DNA of 64,000 nt from Candidatus Micrarchaeota archaeon (GCA_018819225.1 JAHJQN010000005.1:32001-96000), one strand, 5' to 3'. Positions 9,671 to 51,290 are shown, numbered from the stretch's first letter. A program made the numbers and translations. The notes: generated by a model from the letters alone, not told the origin.

Positions 9671-10105
9671 CTACGCTTTCTTGAGTTTAACGCGTTCGAG
9701 GATGATGGTGGGCGAGATTTTGGTGACGCCATCCATCACCGAAATTTTCTCGTTGATGAAGCGCGTCACCTCTTCTTGGTTATGCATCCACACTTCCATT
9801 AGCACCATGTGCTCGCCCGTTGAAGTTGCCAGATACGAGATTTCATTCAAACGGGCAAGCGCCTCCACGACTTTCAAAAACTTGAGCGGTTCGATATTCA
9901 AACCAATAAACGCCACGGAATCGAAACCGATCTTGCGAGGATCTACAATGGCTTGATACTGAAGGATCACGCCTTGTTTTTCAAGGTTTCGCACGCGATT
10001 CCGAACGGTGGCTTCGCTGACATCCAATTCCTCAGCGATCTTGAGGTATCGGACGCGACCATTTGAACGCAACGCCTTGACAATGCCTTGATCGAGTTCA
10101 TCCAC
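9671..10105 (-). CDS. Lrp/AsnC regulator, LrpA/Ptr2 type (paralog 1)
   Basis: MDELD, HTH IAEELDVSEATVRNRV, IVDPRKIG, STGEHM, ISPTIILE as in LrpA/Ptr2. Confidence 0.93.
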   Translation of the reverse strand: MDELDQGIVKALRSNGRVRYLKIAEELDVSEATVRNRVRNLEKQGVILQYQAIVDPRKIGFDSVAFIGLNIEPLKFLKVVEALARLNEISYLATSTGEHMVLMEVWMHNQEEVTRFINEKISVMDGVTKISPTIILERVKLKKA

Positions 10106-10316
10106 GAAGAATACCCAAAGCCCCTACAAATTGCGAATTCCGCAGGGTTGATACTGAATAACGAAAAAATATAAGCATTATTCTGAATTTCTTCAGAATT
10201 ATTCTAATTTTCGTCCCGTTTTCCATGAAGATTTACCGGAAATCTTAAAAAAACTATAAAATAAAAAAATTAAAAATATGAAAATGGCACTAAAAAGTGC
10301 CAATTTCATACTAAAA

Positions 10317-10928
10317 CTAAGTCAAATCGTACCAAATGTCGTACGCGTTGTAGTTAGGGGTCTTGGCTACAACGATCTCGTAGTTGATCCGACCGAAGCT
10401 GCTAGTAATGAAGTTGCTGAGGTTCGTGCAGAACCCATAGTTCTCCGTTCCCGCACCAGTGGAATCGAAGATGATGGCCGTGCTGCGCGAGTCCGTTGTG
10501 TTTAACACGCGCATGTTCAACGCACTCCCGCACTGTCCGTCGGATGCGGAAGAATCGAAGTGATTCGCGGTCACGTAATATCCCGTGAGAGAGAAGTTGC
10601 CGTCCGTGGTGCTGTTCGTTGAGGCGTTCACGAACGGTTCCGATGGAGTGACGCCGGTCTCAAAGAAGTACAGTACTCCTGAAGAAACGGGTTTCGTGTA
10701 CAACACGTTGCCTACGGCGGTATTGTTCCGGACTTGCAGAGTCAAATTTCCGTAGAAACCAACGTACTGCTCCATGCGTCCTGTAACGGTCAAGTTGCTG
10801 GACGTTCCGTTATCAGTTGGTGCGGCTACGTTCGTGTTATCCGATTGCTGAATGGCAAATACCATGGTCGCAGCAATAGATATTAAAAACAGAAATACTA
10901 CGACGAATCTCTTATTTATATTCCTCAT
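10317..10928 (-). CDS. Secreted ~200-aa hypothetical protein, paralog SP1
   Basis: Signal peptide; QYVGFYGN, many N-x-S/T sequons, one Cys pair, C-terminal YDIWYDLT; paralog of 49232 and 50688. Confidence 0.88.
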   Translation of the reverse strand: MRNINKRFVVVFLFLISIAATMVFAIQQSDNTNVAAPTDNGTSSNLTVTGRMEQYVGFYGNLTLQVRNNTAVGNVLYTKPVSSGVLYFFETGVTPSEPFVNASTNSTTDGNFSLTGYYVTANHFDSSASDGQCGSALNMRVLNTTDSRSTAIIFDSTGAGTENYGFCTNLSNFITSSFGRINYEIVVAKTPNYNAYDIWYDLT

Positions 10929-10984
10929 TTCCCAACAACACCCCTCGATTTATTGATTTAGATTTAGCATATTCAAAAAAAATA

Positions 10985-11017
10985 TACGAAAATCGTAATA
11001 ATATAGACATATATAAA
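10985..11017 (-). promoter_or_regulatory. TATA box (11017-11010) plus palindromic operator TACGATTTTCGTA (10997-10985) of SP1
   Basis: TTTATATA, 12 nt, perfect TACGA-TTT-TCGTA palindrome; the upstream region is conserved with 50591-50687. Confidence 0.75.
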
Positions 11018-11206
11018 TCTTTCCATTGAGTAAATTAGCTATTATAATAAGAATAAACTAAATCAAATGTGGTTATTACGTTAAAATAGGATAAGAATTG
11101 GATGTAAAGGGGATTAATGACGCGATGGAATAAATTGAAAGCAAGGACTCAAACGATAAGCTAAAAAGTAATCAAAGGCAATAAGGAAAGGAGGTGTAAA
11201 TCGTTC

Positions 11207-11857
11207 ATGAAACTATTTATCGATACCGCTGATCTCAAGGAAATACAGGAGGCTGCACAATGGGGCGTCATTGATGGCGTCACCACCAATCCGTCCCTGG
11301 TAGCGAAAACCGGGAACAAGGATTTCAAACAAGTCGTGCAAGAAATCACGAAGCTCATTGACGGGCCTATTTCAGCTGAAACCATCAGTTCCGATGCCAA
11401 AGGCATGGTTGAAGAAGGACAAAAATACGCGAAGTGGCATAAGAATATCGTCATCAAGGTGCCGATGACGGAGGACGGCATTCAAGCGTGCAAGAAGCTC
11501 GCTGACGAAGGCATTCGAGTCAACGTGACCCTTGTTTTCTCAGCGAACCAAGCTTTGTTGGCAGCCAAGGCCGGAGCGTATTTCGTTAGCCCGTTTGTAG
11601 GCCGAATCGATGACGCAGGAGCTGACGGCATGCAGCTCGTTCGGGACATCGTGCAGATCTACAAGAATTACGGGTTCAAGACGCAGGTTCTCGCAGCCAG
11701 CATTCGCCACCCCGTGCACGTGCTCGATACGGCTAAGGCAGGAGCCGATGTGGCGACGTGCCCGTATAAGGTATTGAAGCAGCTGTTTCGACATCCCCTG
11801 ACGGATAAGGGAGTACGCCAGTTCCTGGATGACTGGAAGAAGCTGCAGAGCGGATAG
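11207..11857 (+). CDS. tal: Transaldolase (TalC/FSA family)
   Basis: [20 protein letters not shown] Schiff-base Lys, NVTLVFS; SPFVGR (Phe) favours transaldolase over FSA; GGAGGTG SD. Confidence 0.92.
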
Positions 11858-12048
11858 TACAAGCAAGCGCGTTTTAGGAAAATGGCTTAAATATCGTTTC
11901 CAGAACGTGAGATCTGAAACACCCATATTTTTATGGATTTCGAAGCCCATTAAGGCAAATGACGGGTAAAACGTTAAATACTTTGAAATCAAGAATAGGT
12001 TGGGAAGAGAAAACGCAAGAAGGGTTTCGCCTCTTTTAATAAGAGGTG

Positions 12049-12180
12049 ATGAAGATGACGATGGAAGAACTAGTGTTACTTCTAGTCCTCTTGCTCGCCG
12101 CCGTGGTCCTGATTCCGAGATTCTTCGAAAAACAAGGGTCCAGCTCGGCTTTCAAAAAAGGTGAATTACCGCGCTTCTAG
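12049..12180 (+). CDS. Small single-TM peptide (43 aa) MKMTMEELVLLLVLLLAAVVLIPRFFEKQGSSSAFKKGELPRF
   Basis: GAGGTG SD, TATA-like sequence near 11974, one hydrophobic helix; C-terminus shared with the 12416-12534 paralog. Confidence 0.6.
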   Translation: MKMTMEELVLLLVLLLAAVVLIPRFFEKQGSSSAFKKGELPRF

Positions 12181-12204
12181 TGTTCGCGCTATAAAAGGGA
12201 TTGC

Positions 12205-12288
12205 ATGGAAGGAACATTGTTTTTGGGACTGCTCGTCGCCGGATGGATTATTAGCAGCTCGGACTTTGGAGACGCTGCAGTCATATAA
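12205..12288 (+). CDS. Small hydrophobic peptide (27 aa) MEGTLFLGLLVAGWIISSSDFGDAAVI
   Basis: AAGGGA upstream, hydrophobic N-half; short, weak support. Confidence 0.35.
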   Translation: MEGTLFLGLLVAGWIISSSDFGDAAVI

Positions 12289-12415
12289 CCGCCCATCGGA
12301 TGAAAAGGAGCGTTAGTTGCAGCATGACCGGGACCAATAAAACATCACCGCGCATCCGCGGAGAATAGTTGAATATTAGTTACCATATATTAGTAGTAAC
12401 AATCAAGGTAGGAGT

Positions 12416-12534
12416 ATGATCTTTGAACTGATGGCCGTTGGATTCTTGGGCGTTATTCTATACTCCCCGGTCTGACCGATGACCACGCCGGAAAAGAGAG
12501 TCCGCTCATGAAAAGCGAACTCCCGCGATACTAA
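12416..12534 (+). pseudogene. Frameshifted paralog of the 12049 peptide (MIFELMAVGFLGVIL/ILPGLTDDHAGKESPLMKSELPRY)
   Basis: AGGAG SD; adding one base near 12460 gives a 39-aa TM peptide ending KSELPRY, versus KGELPRF in the paralog. Confidence 0.5.
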
Positions 12535-12567
12535 CGACCTTTTTCAAACAAGGTCGATAAAAAAATC
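12535..12567 (-). repeat. Short palindromic element downstream of tRNA-Pro(GGG)
   Basis: TTTTTTTATCGACCTTGTTTGAAAAAGGTCG on minus strand; similar to 14373 and 55842. Confidence 0.65.
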
Positions 12568-12585
12568 TAGGAGCATTAAAAAAAG

Positions 12586-12705
12586 TGGGGCCGCCGAGAT
12601 TTGAACTCGGATCGCTGCCACTCCGGCCTTCACGCGCCTTGCAGCTTTTGGCAGAGCGAGGGAAGGTCCCCAAGGCAGTAGGATGCCAGGTTACCCCACG
12701 GCCCC
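12586..12705 (-). tRNA. tRNA-Pro(GGG) with 47-nt intron at 37/38 (12621-12667)
   Basis: Acceptor GGGGCCG/CGGCCCC, anticodon stem CTGCC/GGCAG, TTCAAAT T-loop; BHB with TTGG:CCGG helix and two 3-nt bulges. Confidence 0.93.
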
Positions 12706-12717
12706 CCCAAAAAAAAC

Positions 12718-12930
12718 TTAGAAGCGCGGATAATGAATGATTTCGTCCACAAGGTCTTCCTGCGAAAGCAGCATTCGGCGGCAGCAATAACGATCAAAAC
12801 CAAACCGGTCCATTGTCTTGCCCGCATCCGCTTCCTTACCCAGTTCCTTGGCACGCTCCAAATCCTCGCGGTACTCGTAATACTTGTCTGCCACGACCTT
12901 ACCGCACGTAAAACAACGAACCGGACACAT
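12718..12930 (-). CDS. rpoN: RNA polymerase subunit N (Rpo10)
   Basis: PVRCFTCGK, RYCCRRMLL. Confidence 0.97.
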   Translation of the reverse strand: MCPVRCFTCGKVVADKYYEYREDLERAKELGKEADAGKTMDRFGFDRYCCRRMLLSQEDLVDEIIHYPRF

Positions 12931-13124
12931 CATCGTTTCTTTCGCCTCTTTTTAAGAAAATCCTTCAACCCCTTTTCTTCAACATTCAATGGAACACCTC
13001 TCCAAAGACATTCATCGCACTCATAAACGCCCATGTGTTCGACGACGCCTGGTACAGCCACGTCGCTGAACGAAGGCGTGCGGAGTTTCGTACTCCAACA
13101 TTCCGGGCAGACATTGATTCTCAT
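12930..13124 (-). CDS. Small zinc-ribbon protein
   Basis: CPEC...CDEC, basic tail; lies within the ribosomal operon. Confidence 0.7.
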   Translation of the reverse strand: MRINVCPECWSTKLRTPSFSDVAVPGVVEHMGVYECDECLWRGVPLNVEEKGLKDFLKKRRKKR

Positions 13125-13127
13125 GGT

Positions 13128-13553: not shown

Positions 13554-13567
13554 AATCGTTCCATCCT

Positions 13568-14444: not shown

Positions 14445-14446
14445 TA

Positions 14447-19531: not shown

Positions 19532-20329
19532 TTAACGCCGGAGCACGCGGCGGAAGATGCGCCACACGCGGCCGAAGAATCCTTCACGGGCATGCATGGG
19601 TTCCGTGCTCCCCGTAATAATGCCCACGCCTTCCTTGAGAACGCGCGCCGCAGGCGAAGAACCCTTGTAGAGTACGATGGGCGTTCGGGCGGCAATGCTT
19701 TCCGGAATCAAGTGATCTTCCGGAATCGAGAAAATAACAGGGACTTCCGCCATCGTCTCAATTTCCTTATTGGATAACTCGAACGGGGAACCCGTCGAGC
19801 GATTGACGACGATGCCGCGCACGCGCGTCTTCTTGTCCTGGCACAACGAAACCACTTTCGCTGCCGATGTGGAGGAAGGCACATCCGGCGTCGTGATCAC
19901 GATGACTTCATCGCACGTCTCCAGAATATATTCGACGTCGGACGTGATACCCGGAGGGGAGTCGACGATGATGTAGTCGTAAGCCGTCATGCTCCACAAC
20001 ACGTTTTTCAAATTTTTCAAGCTCACGTCCGGATGGTACTTGAGACTCGCCGGAAGCACGCGGATGCCCGTTTGCGGTTGGACGACGACGGCTTCCGAAA
20101 CCTTGTTCTTGCCCTGAAGGACTTCTTGAATTCCAACGGCGCCGTAAGATAACCCGAGGTGGAGTCCAGTCGACGGATTGCTCAAATCGCAATCGACGAT
20201 AATGGAATTGCGGCCCATGCGCTTGAGAATCGCCGTCGTATTGACGGCTACAACGCTTTTTCCAACGCCTCCTTTACCGGATACGACCCCGATAATCTTA
20301 TTCTTACGATTAGTGTTTGCAGCTGGCAT
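19532..20329 (-). CDS. minD: MinD/ParA-family ATPase
   Basis: SGKGGVGKS deviant Walker A, VDCDL, IIVDSPPG, IPED, C-terminal amphipathic FFGRVWRIF. Confidence 0.9.
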   Translation of the reverse strand: MPAANTNRKNKIIGVVSGKGGVGKSVVAVNTTAILKRMGRNSIIVDCDLSNPSTGLHLGLSYGAVGIQEVLQGKNKVSEAVVVQPQTGIRVLPASLKYHPDVSLKNLKNVLWSMTAYDYIIVDSPPGITSDVEYILETCDEVIVITTPDVPSSTSAAKVVSLCQDKKTRVRGIVVNRSTGSPFELSNKEIETMAEVPVIFSIPEDHLIPESIAARTPIVLYKGSSPAARVLKEGVGIITGSTEPMHAREGFFGRVWRIFRRVLRR

Positions 20330-20390
20330 ACCTCATTCTCCAAACACTAGACAACAAGCCCTTTTAAATGAGTTTGGGCAAGTGGTTAAA

Positions 20391-22118
20391 CTACTCCATC
20401 ATTTGCTTGAGTTGCCCCAAATAATCGGAGCGGTCTTGCCGGAACTGTTTGCGGGCATGCGCATCATCGCGTTTTTTGCGGAAGGAAACGAACATGGCGG
20501 CCGCCGCCACAATCGAAACACCGATGATGGCCGCGACCTCCGGTGGAAAACGCGCGATCAACGTGCTCACGGAATCGTCTTCGCGTTTGCGCACTTGAAC
20601 GGGCGTGCTTTTCGCATTCAAACCGTCTTCGGTAAACAAACGGAACGTGAACAAGTGCGACCCCGCGCTTCCAACGGGCGGGGTGACCCGGAAACCAAAC
20701 CGCGTAATGCCTCTCGGGAGCAATGGTTTTTGGATTTCCAAGGGCTGTAATTCAAAATCAACGGGCACTTCCAGCGCGGCTTGCACGTGCAGCGGTTGAA
20801 TCCCGGAATAAAACACGTCAACCGCCACTTCCCCTTCTTCCCCCTCGAATAATTCGGGGGCGAACAATCCTTTGACTTCCACGAATTCCAAGAGGCGCAA
20901 CTTTTCCTGCGTGACCGCTACCTGGTCGGTCTGCCAATCCACGTACGTGGAATACGTGGGGAGGACAAGGGGAAGGACGTACGTGGCGTACGCGATTTCG
21001 TTGGGATTCAAATTCAAAAACTCCCATCGAACCTTTAACGGCCGTTCTTGAATGATTTCTCCGGGTTTATCGAGAAAACGAATGTCTTGCGAGGTCACAT
21101 CCATGAGAGTGGGAATGGATTCGTAGACGTTGACGACGGGTATGGCTTTCGTGCCCAGATTGCGCACGTTGAGCGCGACCGTGGTTTCGCGCGCGAGCCG
21201 ATCAATGCGGATGTGTCGCAATACGACGGGGTAGGGGTATTCGCGCGGAAAGCTCTTGACGCGCAATACCATGTATTCAATCGTAGGGCGCGTGCTATGA
21301 ACCTCTAATTTCAGTAAATAATCGCCGGCCAACGCGTAATTCGGAACGGATAAACCGAAATTGATGATGCGTTCTTCTCCGGGGCGTAACGTCGTTTCCT
21401 TGGGCTGGAACGATACCCAGGATTCGGAAGTCCCGGTCACGAGCAAGCGAATGGTTTTCTCGGTTCCGCCGTCGTTGCGAATCGTAAAGGATTCGAATGC
21501 GCTCGTGCCCGCCAAGAGCTCTCTGAGAACCGTGTGGCGCAAGAACTTGATGTCCCCTTCAACGGGAATGATTTCATCCGGCAGGGGTTTCGGGGGCGTG
21601 AAATTATCGGTGGGCGGAATGAAAAATCCTCCGGACGAGCCACCCCCTCCCGGGGATTGCGGAGGAGGAGTCACCGGCGGATTCACGACGGAAAAGCATT
21701 CAGAAAACACTTCGCTTTGGTTCGCGTAATCGTCGTAATACGCGGTGGCGTTCGCGCAGTATATGCCGATGGGAAGCGTGCCCGTGCTCCAGCTCTTGAT
21801 GAGAATCACTTGCGAAAAACGCGAGATGAGCGTCGGCGAGTAATTGAACGAGTCCACGAGGTCATCCGTCGTGTTGAAGATGAGGACTTCCGCGGTCGCG
21901 TTCGCTTGAACGGTTCCGTTGTTGTAAAGCGTGAGAACGAAGTCGCCGCTGGCCCCTGAATAAATGGGATCGGGAGCTACGGTCAGGTTTTGGATCGTGA
22001 CGTTCGTGTAATTAGGCAAGTCGGACCGGAACCACGTCAGCGTGTCCGCGTAATCGGCGTGAGCGAGACTACTCAATAAGAAAAGAATAAAAAATAAAAA
22101 AAAGGTTTCATGGCTCAC
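20391..22118 (-). CDS. Exported multi-Ig-like (CARDB-like) protein with C-terminal TM anchor
   Basis: GTG start overlapping the upstream TGA; signal peptide, LYNNGTV and IRNDGG beta-sandwich motifs, PGGGGSSGG linker, TM followed by RKKR. Confidence 0.85.
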   Translation of the reverse strand: MSHETFFLFFILFLLSSLAHADYADTLTWFRSDLPNYTNVTIQNLTVAPDPIYSGASGDFVLTLYNNGTVQANATAEVLIFNTTDDLVDSFNYSPTLISRFSQVILIKSWSTGTLPIGIYCANATAYYDDYANQSEVFSECFSVVNPPVTPPPQSPGGGGSSGGFFIPPTDNFTPPKPLPDEIIPVEGDIKFLRHTVLRELLAGTSAFESFTIRNDGGTEKTIRLLVTGTSESWVSFQPKETTLRPGEERIINFGLSVPNYALAGDYLLKLEVHSTRPTIEYMVLRVKSFPREYPYPVVLRHIRIDRLARETTVALNVRNLGTKAIPVVNVYESIPTLMDVTSQDIRFLDKPGEIIQERPLKVRWEFLNLNPNEIAYATYVLPLVLPTYSTYVDWQTDQVAVTQEKLRLLEFVEVKGLFAPELFEGEEGEVAVDVFYSGIQPLHVQAALEVPVDFELQPLEIQKPLLPRGITRFGFRVTPPVGSAGSHLFTFRLFTEDGLNAKSTPVQVRKREDDSVSTLIARFPPEVAAIIGVSIVAAAAMFVSFRKKRDDAHARKQFRQDRSDYLGQLKQMME

Positions 22119-23074
22119 GTGACCTCGAAGAACATCGTGTACCATGTTTGTCCGATGCTTCCGCCTCCCGTGCCGATGTAGTCCAGTTTGTACTTGTAGA
22201 ACCATTCATCGTTCTTCGCCCCGGACGGCGGCGTGATGTTGATTCCGACGATGTATCGGCCGGGTTTCACGTCCTTAGCCCTTACTTTAACCGTAATCTT
22301 TTGGGTCCAACCCGATTGGAAGACGGGAAATGCCGGTTCCAGCAAGACGTCTACCGGATCCACTGAAACGTCAAAGTACTTTTTGGTTTCCTCGGGGTCG
22401 ACGTCGACGGTACGCGTGCCATCCGCGAACTCGCTTAACTTGAGCTCGCCGTGCGGCGGGTATTCAACCGAGAAGGCCATGCCCTGATAGGTCTGCACGA
22501 GCCACGTGGAATGGATGAAGAAATGCGTTTCGTATTCGTCGTTTCGTCTGGATAGCACGATGACTTCGCTCGGGAACGTTCCGTAACCGACTGCGGCCCA
22601 GCGGTCCGTCGGAGGATACTGGTACAATTTGCACCCGCTTTCATCGAACATGGGATACCATTCGGGCTGTTTCCAATAATTTTCCCCGAAATAGTTGGTG
22701 TCCGAAATTTTTCCGAGGTGGAACAACAGCTTTTGGACGTAGAAATCTTCAGGGAACGGAGGGACCTCGGCATACACTTGGGGAGGCAAGTCGCATCGCC
22801 GCTTGGCGATCTCGAACGGATCTTCCTGGTATTGCTGCAGGCGAACCATCAAGTCCGGGTACTTGGTCCAGAACGGATCCTCGGTCGGCGTCGGGGTTGT
22901 GGCCACTGTTATGGCCGTTGGAATGATTGTAGGCACCGGAGCCGGAGGAGCAAACGCGTCCTGCAACGGTCCCAAGAAATACAGTGCGAGCACCGCGATC
23001 ACGGCCAATCCAATCCACACTTCCTTGCCCATTTTCTTTCCGTGATGCGACGTGCTATGAGGCTTCTTCTTCAT
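22115..23074 (-). CDS. Membrane-tethered exported hypothetical protein
   Basis: N-terminal TM, PT linker, YWKQPEWYP, C-terminal Ig-like PGRYIVGINIT. Confidence 0.85.
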   Translation of the reverse strand: MKKKPHSTSHHGKKMGKEVWIGLAVIAVLALYFLGPLQDAFAPPAPVPTIIPTAITVATTPTPTEDPFWTKYPDLMVRLQQYQEDPFEIAKRRCDLPPQVYAEVPPFPEDFYVQKLLFHLGKISDTNYFGENYWKQPEWYPMFDESGCKLYQYPPTDRWAAVGYGTFPSEVIVLSRRNDEYETHFFIHSTWLVQTYQGMAFSVEYPPHGELKLSEFADGTRTVDVDPEETKKYFDVSVDPVDVLLEPAFPVFQSGWTQKITVKVRAKDVKPGRYIVGINITPPSGAKNDEWFYKYKLDYIGTGGGSIGQTWYTMFFEVT

Positions 23075-23094
23075 GATCTTTCCCCCTCTTATGC

Positions 23095-23703
23095 TTAGTT
23101 CGCGTTCGTGCTGTTGTGCGTGATCAAACGCTGTTCCACGAGACCGGATACGGACGTGAAGTTCGCGTACAACGTCACGTTAATCGAACAACATGCGGGT
23201 GAAGCCGTGGTATTGAGTTCCTGGAAAATCATTGCTTCCATGGAATTGTTCAACGGAATCTCTGGACCAATAGTTACCGCGTTGTTACCCACTCCACTTG
23301 CAGAACTGTTCACGCCCACCGTAATACCCGATGGAAGCGATGAATTGAATATGAGCGTCATGCTGAGATTCACGTTTCCGGCATTCGTGTACTGGAAAAT
23401 AGGTACCGCTGCTCCGGCTTGACACGAACCGCCGAATGCGGTGGTCAAACACGGTTCGACTCGCGTGCACGTTCCGGTGACGCAGGTAAAGTTAATGTCT
23501 GCAGTTGCGGGGCCGGGATCGGATGCACTCGAAGCATTCGCTTCACCGGCTCCCAACGGTAATGTAATCGTGAAACCCGTGTCCACCGGGACATTGAAGA
23601 TGACGGCGGTATTCGCCCATTCCGCTAACGGCATGGCAGCCAACGCAATAAATGCGGCAACAAAAACAATCAAGCGAAAGTGTTTCCAAACCATTGCGTC
23701 CAC
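23095..23703 (-). CDS. Secreted pilin-like subunit (hypothetical)
   Basis: Signal peptide; TNAGNVNL; homologous to the C-terminus of 23782-28341; own TATA-like sequence near 23751-23758. Confidence 0.8.
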   Translation of the reverse strand: MDAMVWKHFRLIVFVAAFIALAAMPLAEWANTAVIFNVPVDTGFTITLPLGAGEANASSASDPGPATADINFTCVTGTCTRVEPCLTTAFGGSCQAGAAVPIFQYTNAGNVNLSMTLIFNSSLPSGITVGVNSSASGVGNNAVTIGPEIPLNNSMEAMIFQELNTTASPACCSINVTLYANFTSVSGLVEQRLITHNSTNAN

Positions 23704-23781
23704 CTTTTAATTATACGAAGCGGGGATATGAATCCGTGACGTTTAAGGCCTATATAAAGCTTTCTGCGAGGGAAAAAATAA

Positions 23782-26700
23782 CTATTGTGATGCGGTGGCG
23801 TTGTGAGTAATTTCCACCCACTCGGCCATGCCTCCGCTGACGCCGCTGAAATCAGCCCAGCACCATAACTGTTCCCCTTCGCCCGTTGGAACCGTCGTAT
23901 TCACGAGGAACGGATCCGCCGCACTCGTATTGGTATTAATGGTGTGAGAGCTTCCGTAACCTGCGCCGGAATTGTGACATTTGAGGGTCACCCCCGTTGG
24001 AGGCGTTGCATTCAAGTAAATACTCCAATTGAGATTTGCATCCCCCGTATTATTGAAAATAAAGAACGGATTATCATTGTTTTGACAATTCGCGGTATAT
24101 CCGACGCATGGATGCACCTCCGTTTGATCGCCCGTCAAACTCGTGAAGTTCATGTCCAAGGTAAATGCAGGCGTGTAGTTGATGTGCAAGGCTGGTTTAT
24201 TATTTAGTGAGTGGTTTGCAGAAGAGATCACAAAACGTTCTGTTCCTGAATCGGGCACAGATACCGCACCGAAGATGGAAATCCATTCCGGGTGATTCAA
24301 TATTTGGGCATGGGCGATCGCTGGATCCAACGTGAAGTTCTTGTAACCGGTACTCTCGAATAATGCGGCAGTGGAATTCCAGGTATTCGAAGCATCATTA
24401 GAATGCATGGCTTTACAAGATATTAACTGCACGCGACTGACAACATGACCACCCAAAAGTCCATTGTTTTCTCCTGGATTGGTAGCAGTGGAAACATATA
24501 ATTCTGCTAGAATTTCATTGAAAATAATTCCGGATCCATTCGTTAATCCGGTTTCAAAATCCATATGCCATTTTCCGGATGCCCCTATCCCAAGGGTTTG
24601 GTTGGCTTCAATCAATTCATCTCCTTCCGGCGTACAAGCCGCATTTCCTGCATTTCCATACTCTGCAATATCAAAACTGGGGTAAACCGCTATAGTTCGA
24701 GAATAGTTCGCAGTAGAACCAACGGCTCCCCTTCCGGGAATCGTTAACGTAAACGATGTGACGGCTGGCACGGTCCAAGGCATACGGATGTGCACCTCGC
24801 GGTTCGTGCTCAACGTGATGTTTCGAATCGATGAATTGTCGGTATAACCCGGCGAACTGGCATTGAAGTAATGAGGCGTGTAATCCGTTTGCGTGTTCGT
24901 TCCGTCCGGCGCGTTGACGATCGTAAAAGCAGTGAGGGTCTGCCAAGGAGTCATTCCGTTCGAGTCCGTGGTGATTCCCGTGAGCATTTCCGTGCCAGAC
25001 GTGTAATTGGTGATCGAAACCGTGGCGCCGTTCATGGGATCGTCGGTCACGTTGGTGACATTCACCAACAAAAACCATTGCCGCGTGTAATTGTTTTCAT
25101 TTCCCCCGAACGTGACCAGGAGGTCATCAAACGAACTGTTGCGGAACACGTGGCCTTGCGAACCGCTGGAGAGGAATAAATCCTTGTTCTGCGTGTCACG
25201 GATGGTGTTGTTGATCCACAGGCTGTTGTTGGAGGCCACGATATGGATGCTGTTGTTGGAATGGTTTTGAATCGTGTTGTTCGTGAAATTGTTGAAATCG
25301 GAGTTGATGATCCTCACGCCCCGCGGTCCTCCCGTAAAGTTGTTGTTCTCGACGACGTGGTCGGTACGCGTTCCCGCAGAAACGGACCAAATACCTAATG
25401 CTTCCCCGTAACCGTCGCCATTATCTTTCATTTCCTCCACTGTATTGTTCCGAACGACGCACCACGCATTGTCGCCGGTCCCCTCGTAACCCAGCGCCAT
25501 GCCGTACGGAGACTGGTTGACGTAATTGTTTTCTATCGTGCAGTTATCGGAGTGGCCGTAGAAGAGGACGGAAAAATCAGCTCCTGACGGCGTGTGAACC
25601 GTGTTGTTTCGGAAAATGGTGTTGTTGGACGAGTCCTTGATTTGGATGGCTCCATAACCCTGCGTGCTGAAATTGTTGTTTCGGATGGTCGTATCGTATG
25701 CGAACGAAGCCAATACGCCATGCCGATATCCGTAAAAGGAACAGTTCGCGACGTCGGTTTCGTTAAAGTTTGTAATCGATACATGCGTTCCAACGCGTCC
25801 TACTCGGCTGATCGTATGGCCGTCGCAGTCGAGCGTCAACGTATTTGCCGCGATGGTGAAACAGGATCCGGGGGGGGCCGTCAGGTCGTTGTTCAACAAG
25901 ACGCTTTGTTTAATGGTTCCGCAACTCCCGTTTACAATCGCCGTAAAATTGTTTTTGTCAGTATCCGTTAAACCCCACTCGTCGGATCCGATGCAATTCC
26001 AGATGTATTTATTCGGAGGCAACCCAAAAACATTAAACGCGGTATTCGTCGCATTCTGTAAACCCGTAGCGCTCGTATTCGAGAAGTTGGCGGCCCAAAC
26101 TCCGGAAAAGTTGCCCCATAACGTTAGATTTTGAGGAGTTCCGGTGTCCACATCGATACTGCAGTTGAACGTAACCATCGCTTGGGCACTGCTGGAAACC
26201 GTGGTATTATCGGTCGCAGGACTAATCAATACCACGTCAGGGGGCTCGGAGTAATTGACATATAGATAAACCTGCGATAACGCATCTTGGGAAGAGATGG
26301 GATCCCGATCCTTACGATCTTCATCCTTGATGCCAAATCCGAAGAAATTAGTTCCAAGTCCATTTTCCATGTCCGTATGAGCTGCGTCTATAAGGGTATA
26401 ATTCGTCCACTGTAACCCTGGAACCGAAGCCACTCCGGTATGATAAATAGTCGAAGAATTCACGTAATCCCACGGCGAATCCGAACTACCGCAGGAAAAA
26501 CTGGATAACGGTTTGTTGATCGCGCGAATGGTATGGTTACTCGCATGAACAGTATTCCAGTACAACGAAGCCGTGATGTTGAAAATTTGTGCAGTACCTG
26601 GAATGCTGGTGGTGTCCCAGTCAATTGCAGGCCGGTAATCAATATCGTTATAATAGGTTGCAGTCGCATTCGTGCACGAAGTACTCGTAAGATTTCCTAC

Positions 26701-28341
26701 GATAAGAGAAAAAGCGCTGTCGACAGCACAACCGTAATAATTGTCGACAGTCGTACAACCAATACCCGAATAATTTATGGTGCGCCAGAACGTGGTATCG
26801 TTATTGTTTTCAGCAGCGGCATATCGCACAAACGGATCCAAGAATAACTGTTTGCCTTGCAAATTGGAGATGCGCAGCTCCGTTTGATTCGTCATCGAGA
26901 GCGAAAAGCCTTCCTCAATCAAGTCGTTGAAATCCAAAACGATATCGCCCGGTAACATGATGGAATGATCCTCGACGTAAACCGTGCTCCAATCCATTTC
27001 ATCCGATGAGAGCCGTAATCCGATGGACTGAATCTTGTCGTGAATGGGTTGCGGCGAATCCCGGAAATCCAAAGCGAACTTCGGATGTTTTTCGTTGCGC
27101 ACCTGACCGCGGAAGTTAACCCCTAATCCCTGCTTGATTTCGTGAACGCTTTGATCGCGATTCTCGAATACGATGAAGGGATCCAGTTTCACCGTGTAAT
27201 TGGGGGCTTGCAGTTGGAAGTGCGGGTTTTCCCACGTAAACGAAATGTATTCGTTGAAGCCCATCCACTTTCCGAAGAAGAACACGTTGACGGGTTTCTG
27301 ATACAAAATCGCGGTCTTGTATCCGTTGCCGCTTTCGATCACGTCCGCTTTCGCGCCAACGGCTTTCCCCGTCACCGGCAAGTCGGATTCGAATAATTTG
27401 ACTCCGCGCGGTTCAATTAATGCGGGAACAAGTGTGGGCATAGGAGTGGCATTTGCGGTGGGCGACGCGCTAACAGATGGCGTGGGGGTCATCGTGGCGT
27501 TCGGGGTTGGAGTCATGGTCGCGTTTGGAGTCGGCGTGGGAGCCGGTGTGGAAAACGAATACCCGTCTTCCCGCGAGCAGTTTTCAGAATTACAGCTTTC
27601 AACTGAGAAGAAATACTGCGTGGATGCCAGGAGACTGGAAAGGGTTAGCGAATGCGTTTGCACGAGCGAGGAATCCGATTCAATGAGACTGAGATCGATG
27701 TCTTGACCGTAATAGACCGTGGAATTCGCGGGCTGGTCGGTATCCCAGGAGATGAGCGCGCTGCTGGTTTGGGGTTCTGCAGTCACATTATCGATGATGG
27801 GAAAATCAGGGTAAGGCGTTGCCGTAGGCGTTGGAGTCGGAGTCGCTTCCAATTCGCAGGCGGTAGCGCAACACGTGCCGGAGTCGGAAGCATTGAGCCA
27901 TTGATCGCCAGGACAAATTTCTCCCTCTAAACAAATCGTTCCGTTTTGTTCCGCGCAAGTCGGTTCAGGGGTCGGAGTCGGTTCTTCCGTGGGAGTAGGT
28001 GTCGGGGATTCGCAGGCAACCGCACAACACAAACCGGTATCCGAAGCGTTGAGCCATTGATCGCCAGGACAAATTTCTTCCTCAGAACAAACGAACCCTC
28101 CTTGTTCCGCGCACGTGGGATCGGGAGTGGGCGTGGGCGCTTCAGTTGCAGTAGGAGTAGGGGTTTCCGTTGGAGTCGGCGTAGGAGTAGCAGTAGGAGT
28201 AGGCGTTTCCGTTGGAGAAGGAGTAGGGGTGGGCGTAGGATCGTCGGCCCCGGCAACCGCAGCCAGTAAAAAGACAATAACCACTAACAATCCAATGTTC
28301 GCGAGCAGGAAACTCCCACGGAAACGGGAGGGAAACGGCAT
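23782..28341 (-). CDS. Giant multidomain surface adhesin-like protein (1519 aa)
   Basis: Signal peptide, PT repeats, two 6-Cys modules, FN3-like (ISWDTDQPANSTVYYG), DNRLRE-like domains, NosD-like beta-helix (CFTIAANTLTLDCDGHTI), C-terminal pilin-like domain; no TM anchor. Confidence 0.9.
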   Translation of the reverse strand: MPFPSRFRGSFLLANIGLLVVIVFLLAAVAGADDPTPTPTPSPTETPTPTATPTPTPTETPTPTATEAPTPTPDPTCAEQGGFVCSEEEICPGDQWLNASDTGLCCAVACESPTPTPTEEPTPTPEPTCAEQNGTICLEGEICPGDQWLNASDSGTCCATACELEATPTPTPTATPYPDFPIIDNVTAEPQTSSALISWDTDQPANSTVYYGQDIDLSLIESDSSLVQTHSLTLSSLLASTQYFFSVESCNSENCSREDGYSFSTPAPTPTPNATMTPTPNATMTPTPSVSASPTANATPMPTLVPALIEPRGVKLFESDLPVTGKAVGAKADVIESGNGYKTAILYQKPVNVFFFGKWMGFNEYISFTWENPHFQLQAPNYTVKLDPFIVFENRDQSVHEIKQGLGVNFRGQVRNEKHPKFALDFRDSPQPIHDKIQSIGLRLSSDEMDWSTVYVEDHSIMLPGDIVLDFNDLIEEGFSLSMTNQTELRISNLQGKQLFLDPFVRYAAAENNNDTTFWRTINYSGIGCTTVDNYYGCAVDSAFSLIVGNLTSTSCTNATATYYNDIDYRPAIDWDTTSIPGTAQIFNITASLYWNTVHASNHTIRAINKPLSSFSCGSSDSPWDYVNSSTIYHTGVASVPGLQWTNYTLIDAAHTDMENGLGTNFFGFGIKDEDRKDRDPISSQDALSQVYLYVNYSEPPDVVLISPATDNTTVSSSAQAMVTFNCSIDVDTGTPQNLTLWGNFSGVWAANFSNTSATGLQNATNTAFNVFGLPPNKYIWNCIGSDEWGLTDTDKNNFTAIVNGSCGTIKQSVLLNNDLTAPPGSCFTIAANTLTLDCDGHTISRVGRVGTHVSITNFNETDVANCSFYGYRHGVLASFAYDTTIRNNNFSTQGYGAIQIKDSSNNTIFRNNTVHTPSGADFSVLFYGHSDNCTIENNYVNQSPYGMALGYEGTGDNAWCVVRNNTVEEMKDNGDGYGEALGIWSVSAGTRTDHVVENNNFTGGPRGVRIINSDFNNFTNNTIQNHSNNSIHIVASNNSLWINNTIRDTQNKDLFLSSGSQGHVFRNSSFDDLLVTFGGNENNYTRQWFLLVNVTNVTDDPMNGATVSITNYTSGTEMLTGITTDSNGMTPWQTLTAFTIVNAPDGTNTQTDYTPHYFNASSPGYTDNSSIRNITLSTNREVHIRMPWTVPAVTSFTLTIPGRGAVGSTANYSRTIAVYPSFDIAEYGNAGNAACTPEGDELIEANQTLGIGASGKWHMDFETGLTNGSGIIFNEILAELYVSTATNPGENNGLLGGHVVSRVQLISCKAMHSNDASNTWNSTAALFESTGYKNFTLDPAIAHAQILNHPEWISIFGAVSVPDSGTERFVISSANHSLNNKPALHINYTPAFTLDMNFTSLTGDQTEVHPCVGYTANCQNNDNPFFIFNNTGDANLNWSIYLNATPPTGVTLKCHNSGAGYGSSHTINTNTSAADPFLVNTTVPTGEGEQLWCWADFSGVSGGMAEWVEITHNATASQ

Positions 28342-47164: not shown

Positions 47165-47902
47165 ATGGTAGAGATCACACTGGCGCTGGCGTTTCTGGCC
47201 GGACTTATTTCGTTTCTGAGTCCGTGCGTCATGCCGTTAATTCCGGCATACTTGACGTTCTTGGCTGGAACCACGGCTAAAGATGTGCAAGATAAAGTCG
47301 AGGGAGTACGCAAGCGCATTTTTCTAAGCAGCGTTTTCTTCGTCCTCGGATTCGGCGTCGTGTTCTCGCTTATTGGCGTGTTGCTGCAAAGCGTGTTAAG
47401 CAGCATCGCATTCGATGTCCAACGCTATCTCGGATACGTCGGAGGCGCCGTCATCATACTATTTGGATTGATTCTCATCGGAGTGCTCAAAATCCCGTTT
47501 CTGCAAGCCGAACACAAACTATCCGTTAAGAAAACGCGTTTCCAGTACCTTACCTCATTCATTTTTGGAGCGGCTTTCGCCGTCGGATGGACGCCTTGCG
47601 TCGGAGCCGTGCTCGGAGGGGTTCTGACCCTCGCGGCGACTCAACCGGGAGTGGCATTCCCGCTTATGCTCGCGTACTCGCTGGGGCTCGGACTACCGTT
47701 CCTGCTCGCCGGCGCATTCTTCTCGCGCACCACGGGAATCATTCAATGGCTGGGGCCGTACTTGAAAATCATTAACGTGTTCTTTGGAATTGTGCTGGTG
47801 ATTCTCGGCATCCTCGTGTTCACGGATTCCTTGAGCCAAATCGCTAACCTCTTGATTCCCGCGCAACTATTGGGTGCGGAACAAGCAATACTCGGAGAGT
47901 GA
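47165..47902 (+). CDS. ccdA: CcdA/DsbD transmembrane electron transporter
   Basis: SFLSPCVMPLIPAY, GWTPCVG, YSLGLGLPF. Confidence 0.94.
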   Translation: MVEITLALAFLAGLISFLSPCVMPLIPAYLTFLAGTTAKDVQDKVEGVRKRIFLSSVFFVLGFGVVFSLIGVLLQSVLSSIAFDVQRYLGYVGGAVIILFGLILIGVLKIPFLQAEHKLSVKKTRFQYLTSFIFGAAFAVGWTPCVGAVLGGVLTLAATQPGVAFPLMLAYSLGLGLPFLLAGAFFSRTTGIIQWLGPYLKIINVFFGIVLVILGILVFTDSLSQIANLLIPAQLLGAEQAILGE

Positions 47903-49065
47903 AAGAAAACATGAAATGGCAGAATAATCCGTTACTTATTGGGGCCTCGATCGTGTTAATTGCGAGTGCGATCTGGTTTATTCAGACCGCCAAAAGCCCG
48001 ATTGAAAGCGCGAGCCATTTGCTTCCCAATGTTCAAACCGCAGGCTCGATCCAGCCGTTTGCCAACAATGAAAACGATGACTACGATCCACAACGCGAGA
48101 TTCCCGTTAAGCCATTTCCGTTAGCGCCCGAATTCCAGCAAATTCACGGATACATCAACGCGCCCGAAGGACTGTCGCTCAAGAAAGATTTGCAGGGGAA
48201 AGTCGTTCTAGTGGATTTTTGGACGTACAGCTGCATTAACTGCATCCGCACCCTTCCGCATTTGAAGGAATGGCACCGCAAGTACGCGGATAAAGGCTTG
48301 GTCATTGTCGGGGTCCATTCGCCGGAATTTGCGTTTGAAAAAGAATTCAAAAACGTTCTTGCAGCCGTGGAGAATAACGGGATTGAATACCCCGTTATTC
48401 TCGATAACGATTTTGTGACGTGGAGATTTTACGAGAATCGGTTCTGGCCGCACAAATATCTCGTGGACGCGGACGGATACATCCGGTATGATCACATCGG
48501 GGAAGGCGGATACGATGAAACCGAGCAACAAATCATTGAATTATTAATGGAACGCGATCGCAACCTGCAATGGTCTCAACAAACGAGCAGCGTGACCCCT
48601 GCACCTCCGGATTTCTCGCTCATCGAAACCCCTGAAATATATTTGGGTTATGGATTCGCGCGCCAGCCCCTCGGAAACCCGGAGAATTTCCAACCAGGAG
48701 AAATCGTCTCGTACCAGCTCCCTGAATCATTCGAATCCAACCTCGCTTACCTTGAAGGAGATTGGGAAAATGAAAACGATTTCGTGCGCCTTATCTCCAA
48801 TACCGGAAAAGTCGCATTGAAATACAAGGCATCCAAACTGAACATCGTCGCCGGTTCTCCCTCGGAATCAACGCTCTTCATTGAACTTGACGACCGGCCA
48901 TTAGGAGAAAATGCAGGGGATGATGTATCGAAAACCGATGGACGCGCTATGGTGAAAGAACAAAAGCTGTACAATCTCGTTTCCTCGGCCGACTACCAAT
49001 CCCGAACCATCGTGTTTGAAGTGAACGGGAAGGGGTTTGAGCTTTACACGTTCACGTTCGGATAA
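47899..49065 (+). CDS. TlpA-like redoxin with DipZ-like C-terminal domain
   Basis: VDFWTYSCINC, GVHSPEF, HIGEGGY, TPEIYLG, YTFTFG. Confidence 0.92.
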   Translation: MKENMKWQNNPLLIGASIVLIASAIWFIQTAKSPIESASHLLPNVQTAGSIQPFANNENDDYDPQREIPVKPFPLAPEFQQIHGYINAPEGLSLKKDLQGKVVLVDFWTYSCINCIRTLPHLKEWHRKYADKGLVIVGVHSPEFAFEKEFKNVLAAVENNGIEYPVILDNDFVTWRFYENRFWPHKYLVDADGYIRYDHIGEGGYDETEQQIIELLMERDRNLQWSQQTSSVTPAPPDFSLIETPEIYLGYGFARQPLGNPENFQPGEIVSYQLPESFESNLAYLEGDWENENDFVRLISNTGKVALKYKASKLNIVAGSPSESTLFIELDDRPLGENAGDDVSKTDGRAMVKEQKLYNLVSSADYQSRTIVFEVNGKGFELYTFTFG

Positions 49066-49161
49066 TTGAAAAAAGACGAAATACCGTAGCCCCTAGAGGA
49101 TATTTCGTACTAAAGAATCCGAAATTTTGGCTAGTTAATGCAAATTTCAGTCACCGAAATG

Positions 49162-49194
49162 CTTATATATCACCTATAATCTACGATAAACGTA
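49162..49194 (+). promoter_or_regulatory. TATA box (49162-49169) plus operator-like TACGATAAACGTA (49182-49194) of SP2
   Basis: Same 12-nt TATA-to-palindrome spacing as the other two paralogs. Confidence 0.65.
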
Positions 49195-49231
49195 TCAGGA
49201 TTTTGTTTATTCGAACAGAATCAGCAAAGAG

Positions 49232-49855
49232 GTGATTGAGTTGCGTCCCACCCGCATACTCGCATTAGGTTTAATAGTCGCTGGCGTCATGTCGGTAATT
49301 GTCTACGCGGCAGTCGAACAATCGGATAACACGAATGTTGCGGTGCCAACAAATAACGGAACTTCCACCAACCTATCGGTTGCCGGACGAATGCAGCAAT
49401 ACGTTGGCTTCTACGGAAACATGAGCTACCAGGTCCGTAATGATACGACGGTAGGCAACATTCTGTACCAGAAAACCGTTACTCAAGGAGTGCTCTATTT
49501 CTTCAAAAATGGCGCTACTCCAACGGAACCGTTCGTGAACGCCTCGACGAACAGCACCACGGATACCAATTTCTCGCTCACGGGGTATTATGTGACCGGA
49601 AACCATTTCGATACGAACGCGTCTGATGGACAATGCGCGTCCAATCTGGATCTGAAGGTATTGAATACCACAGATGGCCGAAGCACGGCCATTCTATTTG
49701 ATTCATCAACAGCTGGCACGGAGAATTACCTCTTCTGCACCAACATCAGTTCGTTCACGTCAACAAACGGATTCGGTACCATCAACTACGAGATCGTGGT
49801 GGCCAAGACGCCAACGTATATGGCGTATGACATCTGGCACGACTTAACCACCTGA
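49232..49855 (+). CDS. Secreted ~200-aa hypothetical protein, paralog SP2
   Basis: Signal peptide, QYVGFYGN, Cys pair, YDIWHDLT. Confidence 0.88.
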   Translation: MIELRPTRILALGLIVAGVMSVIVYAAVEQSDNTNVAVPTNNGTSTNLSVAGRMQQYVGFYGNMSYQVRNDTTVGNILYQKTVTQGVLYFFKNGATPTEPFVNASTNSTTDTNFSLTGYYVTGNHFDTNASDGQCASNLDLKVLNTTDGRSTAILFDSSTAGTENYLFCTNISSFTSTNGFGTINYEIVVAKTPTYMAYDIWHDLTT

Positions 49856-49876
49856 TGCGAAAAATATGAAAATCAA

Positions 49877-49889
49877 TACGATTTTCGTA
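49877..49889 (+). promoter_or_regulatory. Palindrome TACGATTTTCGTA upstream of Lrp paralog 2
   Basis: Identical to the palindromes at 10985 and 50618. Confidence 0.65.
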
Positions 49890-50002
49890 TTTTTTACTAA
49901 CCTTTTTCGTTTTTATTTTTTTAGGATTCGCAAAGAAGAGCTTGTGAAGCCCGTTGTTTGGAAGGCTCGCCGGAAAAAACCCACGTGAGGAGGAAAGGAA
50001 TA

Positions 50003-50437
50003 GTGGATGAGCTTGACCTCAAAATTGTTCGGCGCCTGCAGGCCGATGGAAGGATTCGCTTCCTCAAGCTAGCGAAAGAGCTGGACGTCAGTGAAGGGAC
50101 CATTCGCAAGCGCGTTCAAATCCTCGAGGACAAGAAAGTCGTTATTCAATACTCCGCAATCGTGGATCCCCGCAAGATCGGTTTTGATTCCGTGGCGTTT
50201 ATTGGTTTGAATATTGAACCGCTCAAGTTTCTGAAGGTCGTGGAAGCGCTCTCGCGATTGGAGGAACTCTCGTACTTGGCAACGGCAACAGGAGAGCACA
50301 TGGTGCTTATGGAGGTGTGGATGCGTAACCAAGAAGAGATCACGCGCTTCATCAATGAAAAAATTTCGGTCATGGACGGCGTAAATAAAATTTCGCCCAC
50401 CATCATCCTCGAACGCGTCAAGCTTAAGCATAAATAA
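50003..50437 (+). CDS. Lrp/AsnC regulator, LrpA/Ptr2 type (paralog 2)
   Basis: GTG start after GAGGAGG gives 144 aa, the same length as paralog 1; LAKELDVSEGTIRKRV, ATGEHM. Confidence 0.93.
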   Translation: MDELDLKIVRRLQADGRIRFLKLAKELDVSEGTIRKRVQILEDKKVVIQYSAIVDPRKIGFDSVAFIGLNIEPLKFLKVVEALSRLEELSYLATATGEHMVLMEVWMRNQEEITRFINEKISVMDGVNKISPTIILERVKLKHK

Positions 50438-50597
50438 TGCGCATCGGCCGGCCCCTTGCTCCAAAACCCCTCTTCTTCTTTTGAGGGGCCGCTTGAACTG
50501 ATAGGCGAAGCCCCCTTCAAAATCAAGAGCTTCTTCGAATACACTACAATGCATTTCACTAAGTCTAATAGCAATTATGGTATTCATAACCAAAAGC

Positions 50598-50630
50598 TTT
50601 AAATATATCAATATTATTACGATTTTCGTA
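50598..50630 (+). promoter_or_regulatory. TATA box (50598-50605) plus palindromic operator TACGATTTTCGTA (50618-50630) of SP3
   Basis: AAAAGC BRE-like, TTTAAATA, 12 nt, perfect palindrome. Confidence 0.75.
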
Positions 50631-50687
50631 TATTTTTCTTGAATATACTAAATTAAATTCAATAAATATAGGGGTGCTTGTAAATAA

Positions 50688-51290
50688 ATGAAAAACAATC
50701 GAGTATTTTTCGTCGCCATATTACTAATAACCGGATCATTTATGGTTTATGCGGTTCAACAGTCCGATAATACGAATGTAGCCGCACCAACTGATAACGG
50801 AACGTCCAGCAACTTGACCGTTACAGGACGCATGGAGCAGTACGTTGGATTCTACGGCAATTTGACGATGCAAGTCCGGAACAATACCGCCGTAGGCAAC
50901 GTGTTGTACACGAAACCCGTTTCTCAAGGCGTACTGTACTTCTTTGAGACCGGCGTCACTCCATCGGAACCGTTCGTGAACGCCTCGACGAACAGCACCA
51001 CGGACGGCAACTTCTCTCTCACGGGATATTACGTGACCGCGAATCACTTCGATTCTTCCGCATCCGACGGACAGTGCGGGAGTGCGTTGAACATGCGCGT
51101 GTTAAACACAACGGACTCGCGCAGTACGGCTATTATCTATGATTCAACGGGCGCGGGAACGGAGAAGTACGGATTCTGCACGAACCTCAGCAACTTCGCC
51201 ACTACCAGCTTCGGTCGGATCAACTACCAAGTCGTTGTGGCAAAAACAGCAGGCTACAATGCATATGACATATGGTTCGATTTGACATAG
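50688..51290 (+). CDS. Secreted ~200-aa hypothetical protein, paralog SP3
   Basis: Core near-identical to SP1 at the DNA level. Confidence 0.88.
   Translation: MKNNRVFFVAILLITGSFMVYAVQQSDNTNVAAPTDNGTSSNLTVTGRMEQYVGFYGNLTMQVRNNTAVGNVLYTKPVSQGVLYFFETGVTPSEPFVNASTNSTTDGNFSLTGYYVTANHFDSSASDGQCGSALNMRVLNTTDSRSTAIIYDSTGAGTEKYGFCTNLSNFATTSFGRINYQVVVAKTAGYNAYDIWFDLT
50778..51124 (+). repeat. Inverted repeat of 10483-10829 (SP1/SP3 core)
   Basis: About 350 bp with few mismatches; 50988-51124 is identical to the reverse complement of 10483-10619 (137 bp, manual comparison). Confidence 0.9.

Follow-up and report, generated by a model that had tools for sequence, protein, structure and literature searches.

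Three paralogous genes for putative surface proteins (S1, S2 and S3) and two genes for Lrp/AsnC regulators (lrp1 and lrp2) are associated with a 13-bp palindrome in a genome fragment of a Candidatus Micrarchaeota archaeon. It is quite likely that they form a local feast/famine regulatory protein (FFRP) regulon in which Lrp1 and Lrp2 bind the palindromes, repress the S genes in the manner of LrpA and autoregulate. Lrp control of the S and lrp genes is supported because the contact residues of both regulators fit the palindrome by a published recognition code, because the S-lrp pair is syntenic in related genomes, and because the sites are confined to Lrp-linked loci. The window, i.e. the whole stretch of DNA that was analysed, comprises 64,000 nucleotides (nt; contig C3:32001-96000) of an archaeal assembly of 1.37 Mb in 8 contigs with approximately 50% G+C. 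The nearest named kin of its proteins are annotated as 'Candidatus Micrarchaeota archaeon'. An initial annotation of the window had described three secreted paralogs, two linked Lrp genes and a palindrome at a fixed distance from the TATA box. This observation was confirmed at all of its coordinates, and the accompanying proposal that the linked Lrp paralogs bind the palindromes and control the S genes is supported, at the level of sequence, by the three lines of evidence above.

Palindromic sites at the S and lrp genes

The genes and sites of the putative regulon are listed below in window coordinates.

10317-10928, minus strand: S1, 203 amino acids (aa), rich in N-glycosylation sites, predicted to be exported or anchored; orphan Micrarchaeota family, recognized as an open reading frame (ORF) and by paralogy
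49232-49855, plus strand: S2, 207 aa; S1 paralog with 67-69% identity
50688-51290, plus strand: S3, 200 aa; 87% identical to S1
9671-10105, minus strand: lrp1, 144 aa, Lrp/AsnC (FFRP) regulator; follows S1
50003-50437, plus strand: lrp2, 144 aa from GTG 50003; follows S2
10985-10997: putative operator O-S1, TACGATTTTCGTA, 12 nt after the TATA octamer, predicted at about -11 to +2
49182-49194: putative operator O-S2, TACGATAAACGTA, with one deviating arm base; begins 12 nt past the TATA octamer
49877-49889: putative operator O-lrp2, a perfect TACGATTTTCGTA; distances are 22 nt from the S2 stop and 113 nt to the lrp2 start
50618-50630: putative operator O-S3, TACGATTTTCGTA, 12 nt after the TATA octamer
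10144-10132: degenerate putative operator TGCGGAATTCGCA, flanked by the lrp1 start and a TATA-like CTTATATT (10175-10168)
51424-51457: near-consensus pair TACGAAATTCGCA (51424-51436) and TACGAATATAGTA (51445-51457), 21 bp apart, in the AT-rich gap after S3
11010-11022, minus strand: transcription factor B recognition element (BRE) and TATA box of S1, GAAAGATTTATATA, with the TATA octamer TTTATATA at 11017-11010
49162-49169, plus strand: TATA octamer of S2, CTTATATA, preceded by GAAATG
50598-50605, plus strand: TATA octamer of S3, TTTAAATA, preceded by AAAAGC

The pattern TACGAWWWWCGTA occurs at four sites in the window, where 0.1 would be expected. All four (10985-10997, 49182-49194, 49877-49889 and 50618-50630) match TACGANNNWCGTA, which gives 7 strand-matches compared with 0.10 expected, a number reached in 0 of 100 shuffles. 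The sites have the FFRP form abcdeWWWedcba (W, A or T), with TACGA-TTT-TCGTA at three of them and TACGA-TAA-ACGTA at one. The genome-wide scan suggested in the initial annotation found no exact palindrome copy beyond these four in the 1.37-Mb assembly; exact copies are confined to the S and lrp sites and not scattered. The perfect palindrome reported upstream of lrp2 (49877-49889) and the degenerate copies at 10132-10144, 51424-51436 and 51445-51457 were likewise found to be real.

If one mismatch is tolerated, another four sites appear: the S2-lrp2-S3 locus (2.4 kb) contains three, and the remaining one falls within a giant ORF elsewhere on contig C3. A locally shuffled genome contained 0 exact sites and 7 one-mismatch sites, i.e. 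the one-mismatch count of the real genome (4) is at background level, but 6 of the 7 sites with at most one mismatch fall into the two S-lrp loci. Sites with two mismatches (79 found, 86 in the local shuffle) are at background level and were dropped as evidence.

The promoters of S1, S2 and S3 were read base by base. Each consists of a purine-rich BRE, the TATA octamer, exactly 12 nt, and then TACGA. The block RAAAGCTTAWATA also precedes S genes in related genomes, and its conservation supports the choice of TATA box and thereby the 12-nt frame. In archaeal promoters the TATA box is centred near -26, so that the 12-nt spacing would place the S-promoter site at approximately -11 to +2. O-lrp2 may lie downstream of a weak TATA box (AAAAATAT, 9 nt away) or upstream of a T-rich block near 49912.

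The site pair downstream of S3 is located in an AT-rich gap of 200 nt (51291-51489) between the convergent genes S3 and fbp, and no gene follows it. Because the first part of this gap aligns with the S1-lrp1 spacer, an lrp copy was possibly lost after S3. The pair probably represents what is left of an lrp control region, or else a set of auxiliary sites.

Regulators and their recognition code

Both Lrp genes directly follow an S gene, as had been described (S1 is followed by lrp1, S2 by lrp2). The two proteins are 79% identical and may form mixed oligomers. The listed ORF of lrp2 starts at TTG 49958; the true start is probably GTG 50003, since orthologues open with MDELD at this position and GAGGAG is found 10 nt upstream. 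Lrp1 and Lrp2 have the Lrp/AsnC (FFRP) architecture, with HTH_AsnC and AsnC_trans_reg (RAM) domains above cut-off (PF13404/PF13412 and PF01037) and full-length alignments to the solved structures 1i1g, 7fby and 2cyy. On the NCBIfam LrpA equivalog model NF040820, Lrp1 scores 115.0 bits and Lrp2 110.1 bits, and the cut-off of 250 is not reached. The regulators, initially called LrpA paralogs, are therefore LrpA-like and not LrpA orthologues.

In FFRPs, bases a to e of each half-site are read by residues 24, 34, 35, 36, 37 and 39 (FL11 numbering), and the central A:T triplet is uncontacted, with every A:T combination tolerated (PMC2715240). For TvFL3 of T. volcanium, with N-S-E-G-T-R at these positions, SELEX yielded a preference for TACGA[AAT/ATT]TCGTA (Yokoyama et al. 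2009, PMC2715240); the best site of the variant TvFL3[G36A] is still TACGAWWWTCGTA, with TACGA arms, and Ptr1 (F-S-E-G-T-R) has the consensus TACGC[AAT/ATT]GCGTA (PMC2715240). A phmmer alignment of Lrp1 to FL11 (2cyy) has no gaps in the first 103 residues and pairs residue 1 of the query with FL11 residue 5. The contact residues of Lrp1 are Y24, S34, E35, A36, T37 and R39, identical to TvFL3[G36A] at positions 34-39. Those of Lrp2 are F24, S34, E35, G36, T37 and R39, matching Ptr1 at 6 of 6 positions and TvFL3 at 5 of 6 (N24 differs). Both regulators are thus predicted to read TACG(A/C), in agreement with the site. The code is absent from the three other Lrp-like ORFs of the genome (C1, C6 and C7), which have S-K-Q-G-A-E, S-T-S-T-V-V and P-R-V-T-V-H at residues 34-39.

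TvFL3 and Ptr1 (the latter from Methanocaldococcus jannaschii) are the closest known counterparts as judged by contact residues and site form. They share the abcdeWWWedcba arrangement with TACGA (TvFL3) or TACGC (Ptr1) arms, and S34-E35-G36-T37-R39 as in Lrp2; they differ in their targets and in the centre of the site, which is AAT/ATT in their case and TTT/AAA or TAA here. The Ptr2-type specificity proposed in the initial annotation was correct for the inner bases only. Its account of the Ptr2 consensus, GGACGA[AAA/TTT]TCGTCC (PMC2715240), and of the LrpA mechanism (PMC2995911) was accurate. Ptr2 of M. jannaschii shares the inner ACGA-W3-TCGT and residues S34, E35 and R39 with the system described here, yet its S36/S37 reads G at base a (G-A-C-G-A), whereas the outer bases here are TA instead of GGA, base a is T, and residues 36/37 are G or A followed by Thr; the class is that of Ptr1/TvFL3 (T-A-C-G-A/C). 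Ptr2 moreover activates from upstream of the BRE, while the S-promoter sites here are located downstream of the TATA box.

LrpA of P. furiosus (1i1g) is among the three closest solved relatives (E-values of 4e-27 to 6e-27). The likeness extends to a site that adjoins the TATA box downstream, to autoregulation, which is predicted here, and to a Met in place of the ligand-binding Asp. LrpA differs in having T36/A37 with FL10-type TTCGA specificity, and the main targets here would be neighbouring surface-protein genes. Work by Dahlke and Thomm in 2002 reportedly showed that LrpA represses by blocking RNA polymerase recruitment (reviewed in PMC2995911). The best-scoring solved relative (E-value 3e-29) is PH0140/DARP of P. 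horikoshii (7fby, 9w4v), a local FFRP repressor of a very small set of adjacent genes (PMC13628549). DARP differs in its targets, a transporter and a racemase, and in sensing L-Ile or D-allo-Ile via Asp111, which grips the alpha-amino group of the ligand (PMC13628549). The RAM domain of Lrp1 and Lrp2 is intact and carries Met ('GEHM') at the position aligned to Asp111. LrpA likewise has Met ('GDHM') at the ligand-Asp position and is predicted not to bind amino acids (review PMC2995911). For these reasons, the effector of Lrp1 and Lrp2 is probably not a standard amino acid, if there is one at all.

Conservation and probable mode of control

Synteny was analysed in ten other genomes of the same family. 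An S gene followed by an orthologous lrp gene on the same strand, approximately 60-125 nt apart, is found in 8 of them (G001, G003 and G005-G010), and the two without the pair are assemblies of 68-70% completeness. The syntenic lrp orthologues match with E-values between 1e-40 and 1e-65. Two metagenome loci (L027 and L028) contain the same pair, so that the Lrp linkage named in the initial annotation as a check is borne out in genomes and metagenome contigs alike. Between genera, S and lrp are the sole common genes of the neighbourhood.

The distribution of sites was surveyed with a relaxed pattern, TRCGNWWWNCGYA, which has 15 occurrences in the genome. A site of this type is present at the S promoter or leader or in the S-lrp spacer at all 10 Lrp-linked S loci that have upstream DNA, compared with a promoter site at 1 of 18 unlinked S genes, namely S3, which was copied recently from S1; these counts serve as a description rather than as a test, and their independence is overstated as the genomes are kin. 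In G001 the relaxed pattern matches in the spacer only, and the promoter site, TACGAAAATCGGA, is off by one base and was read by eye. The G001 spacer contains TGCGTTTTTCGTA at the position of the perfect lrp2 site of the present genome and, in addition, TGCGATTTTCGTA 19 nt before the lrp start. In the tree of S proteins, the Lrp-linked copies form one clade inside genus g4 but not across genera. A separate observation in genus g4 concerns an unlinked S paralog (L008, G010:C32) with a single relaxed site, TGCGCTTTGCGTA, at 1238-1250, approximately 250 nt downstream of its stop; it is the sole unlinked locus with such a downstream site.

The operator had been described as fixed 12 nt after the TATA box. 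This holds for S1, S2 and S3 of the present genome, but the distance is 11 nt in the closest genus (the S promoter of G001 reads TTTAAATA, 11 nt, then TACGAAAATCGGA) and about 60 nt in genus g4. The fixed spacing is a trait of this genus and its nearest neighbour, and the family overall has a multi-site layout. In genus g4, the conserved site TGCGGTTTTCGTA is located in the leader directly before a conserved CCCACC...CAGAGCGTGATG segment; a second, GC-cored site lies approximately 20 nt upstream of TGCGGTTTTCGTA, and another is found a few bp upstream of the BRE. Arrangements of several sites are characteristic of Lrp proteins that form oligomers (PMC2995911).

LrpA occupies the DNA immediately downstream of the TATA box and prevents RNA polymerase from being recruited, with TATA-binding protein (TBP) and transcription factor B (TFB) co-bound, and lrp genes commonly adjoin their targets and autoregulate (PMC2995911). 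By this model, Lrp1 and Lrp2 very probably bind the 13-bp abcdeWWWedcba sites, here TACGA-W3-TCGTA. A regulator bound at approximately -11 to +2 would let TBP and TFB stay on the BRE and TATA box and would keep RNA polymerase out. Autoregulation would act via the sites in the S-lrp spacers, perfect for lrp2 and degenerate for lrp1. By analogy with LrpA, repression is the most likely mode at S1, S2 and S3.

Several points weigh against this reading or limit its reach. The placement at -11 to +2 is conditional on the conserved BRE/TATA being the one chosen, in an AT-rich region with other TATA-like strings, e.g. CTATATTAT just before the palindrome. The layout in genus g4, with its leader site far from the TATA box and another in an activator-type position, implies that the geometry and possibly the sign of control are not conserved, and the site of lrp2 is possibly upstream of the promoter that lrp2 actually uses, again an activator-like position. 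Ala36 is read as T-preferring in LysM (PMC2715240), and for A at base b opposite Ala36 of Lrp1 the TvFL3[G36A] result is the only backing. Finally, the promoters of S1 and S3 resemble each other between the BRE and the start codon but not further upstream: S3 is a recent duplicate of S1, promoter and leader included, and the two promoters, as products of one duplication, are not independent. The genome therefore has about three independent instances of the palindrome, not four, i.e. the S1/S3 promoter, the S2 promoter and the lrp2 spacer, with the degenerate lrp1 site as a further, weaker one.

The same proteins at the same sites might instead be activators or dual switches, as are Ptr2, LysM and Ss-LrpB, with oligomers that wrap the sites and aid TBP/TFB or later steps. 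This is unlikely, even though a palindrome-like site of genus g4 (e.g. TGCCGAAATCGCA) occurs a few bp upstream of the BRE, the constrained position for activators (PMC2995911), the lrp2 palindrome is maybe 22 nt or so upstream of a T-rich TATA-like block, and sites 21 bp apart are paired after S3. At S1, S2 and S3 no site lies upstream of the BRE, and both here and in G001 the S-promoter site falls between the TATA box and the expected start, where a bound protein excludes RNA polymerase. Shared ancestry offers a different account, in which the palindromes are bound by another factor or have no function and were kept only through recent duplication of the S1/S3 promoters and lrp spacers. The near-identity of the S1 and S3 upstream regions and the resemblance of the region downstream of S3 to the S1-lrp1 spacer are what it would explain. 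It is nevertheless very improbable: the S2 promoter and the lrp2 spacer keep the arms despite unrelated flanks, sites persist at 40-55% identity of the S proteins (G001, genus g4 and metagenome contigs), and the arms match the prediction from the contact residues of exactly Lrp1 and Lrp2.

That exact fit to a protein-DNA code also speaks against a leader in which the palindrome works at the RNA level, as a hairpin or riboswitch-like element at the 5' end of the S mRNA, instead of as an operator in DNA. A start upstream of the palindrome, to which the geometry in genus g4 points, would place the site within the transcript. The stem, however, would have only 5 bp and a 3-nt loop, and the palindrome also occurs where there is no S leader, namely past the S2 stop and downstream of S3. 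A search of the whole window against Rfam gave one tRNA only and no leader RNA family at the locus, and the RNA explanation is hardly credible.

The S family, giant proteins and genomic setting

S1, S2 and S3 each have an N-terminal hydrophobic segment and one Cys pair (C132/C166 in S1). They contain 9-11 N-x-S/T sequons per protein, compared with 4-5 expected from shuffles, and three of these are at conserved columns. The initial description of secreted, sequon-rich paralogs with one Cys pair is correct in these features, except that 'secreted' could mean N-terminally membrane-anchored, since the hydrophobic segments comprise 18-25 residues; the N-terminus could be a cleaved signal peptide or a signal anchor. 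All three paralogs exist as annotated, and the genome total is five. Two further paralogs and a hairpin downstream of S1 complete the feature list.

C5:117304-117900: S4, the fourth paralog, 208 aa, without palindrome and without lrp
C8:50654-51253: S5, the fifth paralog, without palindrome and without lrp
10271-10301 (window), minus strand: hairpin GGCAC/GTGCC with T-runs after S1, read by eye from the sequence; likely the end of the S1 transcript

In the S family, the hydrophobic segment is followed by a strongly conserved (Q/E)Q(S/T)DNTNVAVPxDNGTS motif. The globular part is a beta-rich domain with a near-invariant Cys pair and conserved sequons, and S proteins are accordingly predicted, from their sequences, to be glycosylated, beta-rich extracellular targets of the regulators. 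S has no family match in Pfam, NCBIfam or PHROGs; sub-threshold Pfam matches of S2 to FixH and ABC2_membrane_3 were dismissed. PDB sequences, searched with a profile, gave no match either, and the ESM Atlas contains none above 0.85. The family is narrow, as a search of its profile against 1.84 billion representative proteins recovered only 20 clusters. All named relatives are hypothetical proteins from Micrarchaeota metagenome-assembled genomes or groundwater metagenomes; loci L025-L027 and L030 come from the Hainich groundwater sites. An AlphaFold2 model of S (mean predicted local distance difference test score 81.5) gave a best Foldseek E-value of 0.13 (PDB) and a best VIA-align Z of 3.5; the best matches are lectin or jelly-roll-like entries and none is convincing, a result that does not exclude a fibre-subunit fold. 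As a side observation, a 590-aa protein from the representative library (P0012) matches segment 93-127 of the S profile (NFSLTGYY region) ten times in tandem, and this segment may be an autonomous repeat unit.

On its own, the globular part of S (profile positions ~51-53 to 185-198) also makes up the C-terminal end of giant proteins (738-2860 aa in length), which, judging from their sequences, are without the conserved N-terminal segment of S. No Pfam matches were obtained for five giant S-domain proteins. Immediately downstream of S4 lies the gene for an exported protein of 2390 aa (C5:110118-117326), which has an S domain at its end (domain E-value ~1e-11), and the order of S followed by a giant protein is found again in G001:C44, G016:C1 and G030:C2. 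The S4 locus (C5:110118-125000, L023) encodes, on the same strand, a HerA/DUF87-like ATPase with a transmembrane segment (1023 aa), a 269-aa and a 1030-aa protein, S4 and the 2390-aa protein, and may be an assembly locus for a surface appendage or adhesin. The 2390-aa protein has a weak H-type lectin match near its N-terminus.

Because giant proteins encoded beside S paralogs that lack such regulation share the S domain, the likeliest role for the regulated copies is that of switchable partners, anchors or subunits in a cell-surface apparatus. A protein of ~200 aa encoded directly upstream of a giant with the same domain in its last ~150 aa is reminiscent of fibre systems (chaperone-usher, TasA, archaeal threads). 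There is, however, no fold or sequence similarity to solved fibre subunits (Foldseek E-values >0.1; VIA-align Z ≤3.5), and a role as membrane anchor would suit S equally well. A more specific proposal, possible but on balance doubtful, is that S proteins are building blocks or membrane anchors of a Micrarchaeota-specific appendage that dock with the identical C-terminal domain of the giants, possibly via the N-terminal segment, and that the Lrp pair swaps S subunits in response to a host-derived metabolite other than an amino acid.

Some further features were recorded in the surroundings. A Cys-rich protein of 183 aa with a lipobox-like LLSTGC N-terminus is encoded at 9107-9658 (plus strand) and converges on lrp1, the two ORF ends being separated by 13 nt; it has no family match and no operator. 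At 19532-28341, a candidate filament cluster encodes a second pair of a small and a large protein, in which a 202-aa protein (23095-23703) adjoins a 1519-aa protein; kinship of the 202-aa protein with S was rejected (hhalign probability 1%). A relaxed-pattern site, TGCGATTTGCGTA, is found 557 nt past the window end (C3:96557-96569). It belongs to the leader that precedes the 16S rRNA gene and follows a good BRE/TATA (AAACGTTTATATA) at a distance of ~35 nt. The site may be due to chance, given the 15 relaxed sites in the genome.

The proposed device is a local regulon of the canonical archaeal Lrp/FFRP kind, and its logic is ordinary for archaeal Lrps. New are the DPANN setting with a surface-protein target, and the orphan S family with its link to giant proteins. 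The cell surface of DPANN archaea is their interface with hosts; to our knowledge, regulators are very scarce in these archaea, and hardly any information exists on how they control their surface. The locus offers a small testable system of two regulators and four near-identical operators predicted by a published code, with targets tied to giant surface proteins. The locus is, in addition, a natural and independent test case for the FFRP recognition code, in a phylum distant from the organisms that served to derive it. If the appendage proposal were true, a DPANN archaeon would possess a regulated attachment organ of an unseen fold, in which the giant proteins would be otherwise anchorless adhesins.

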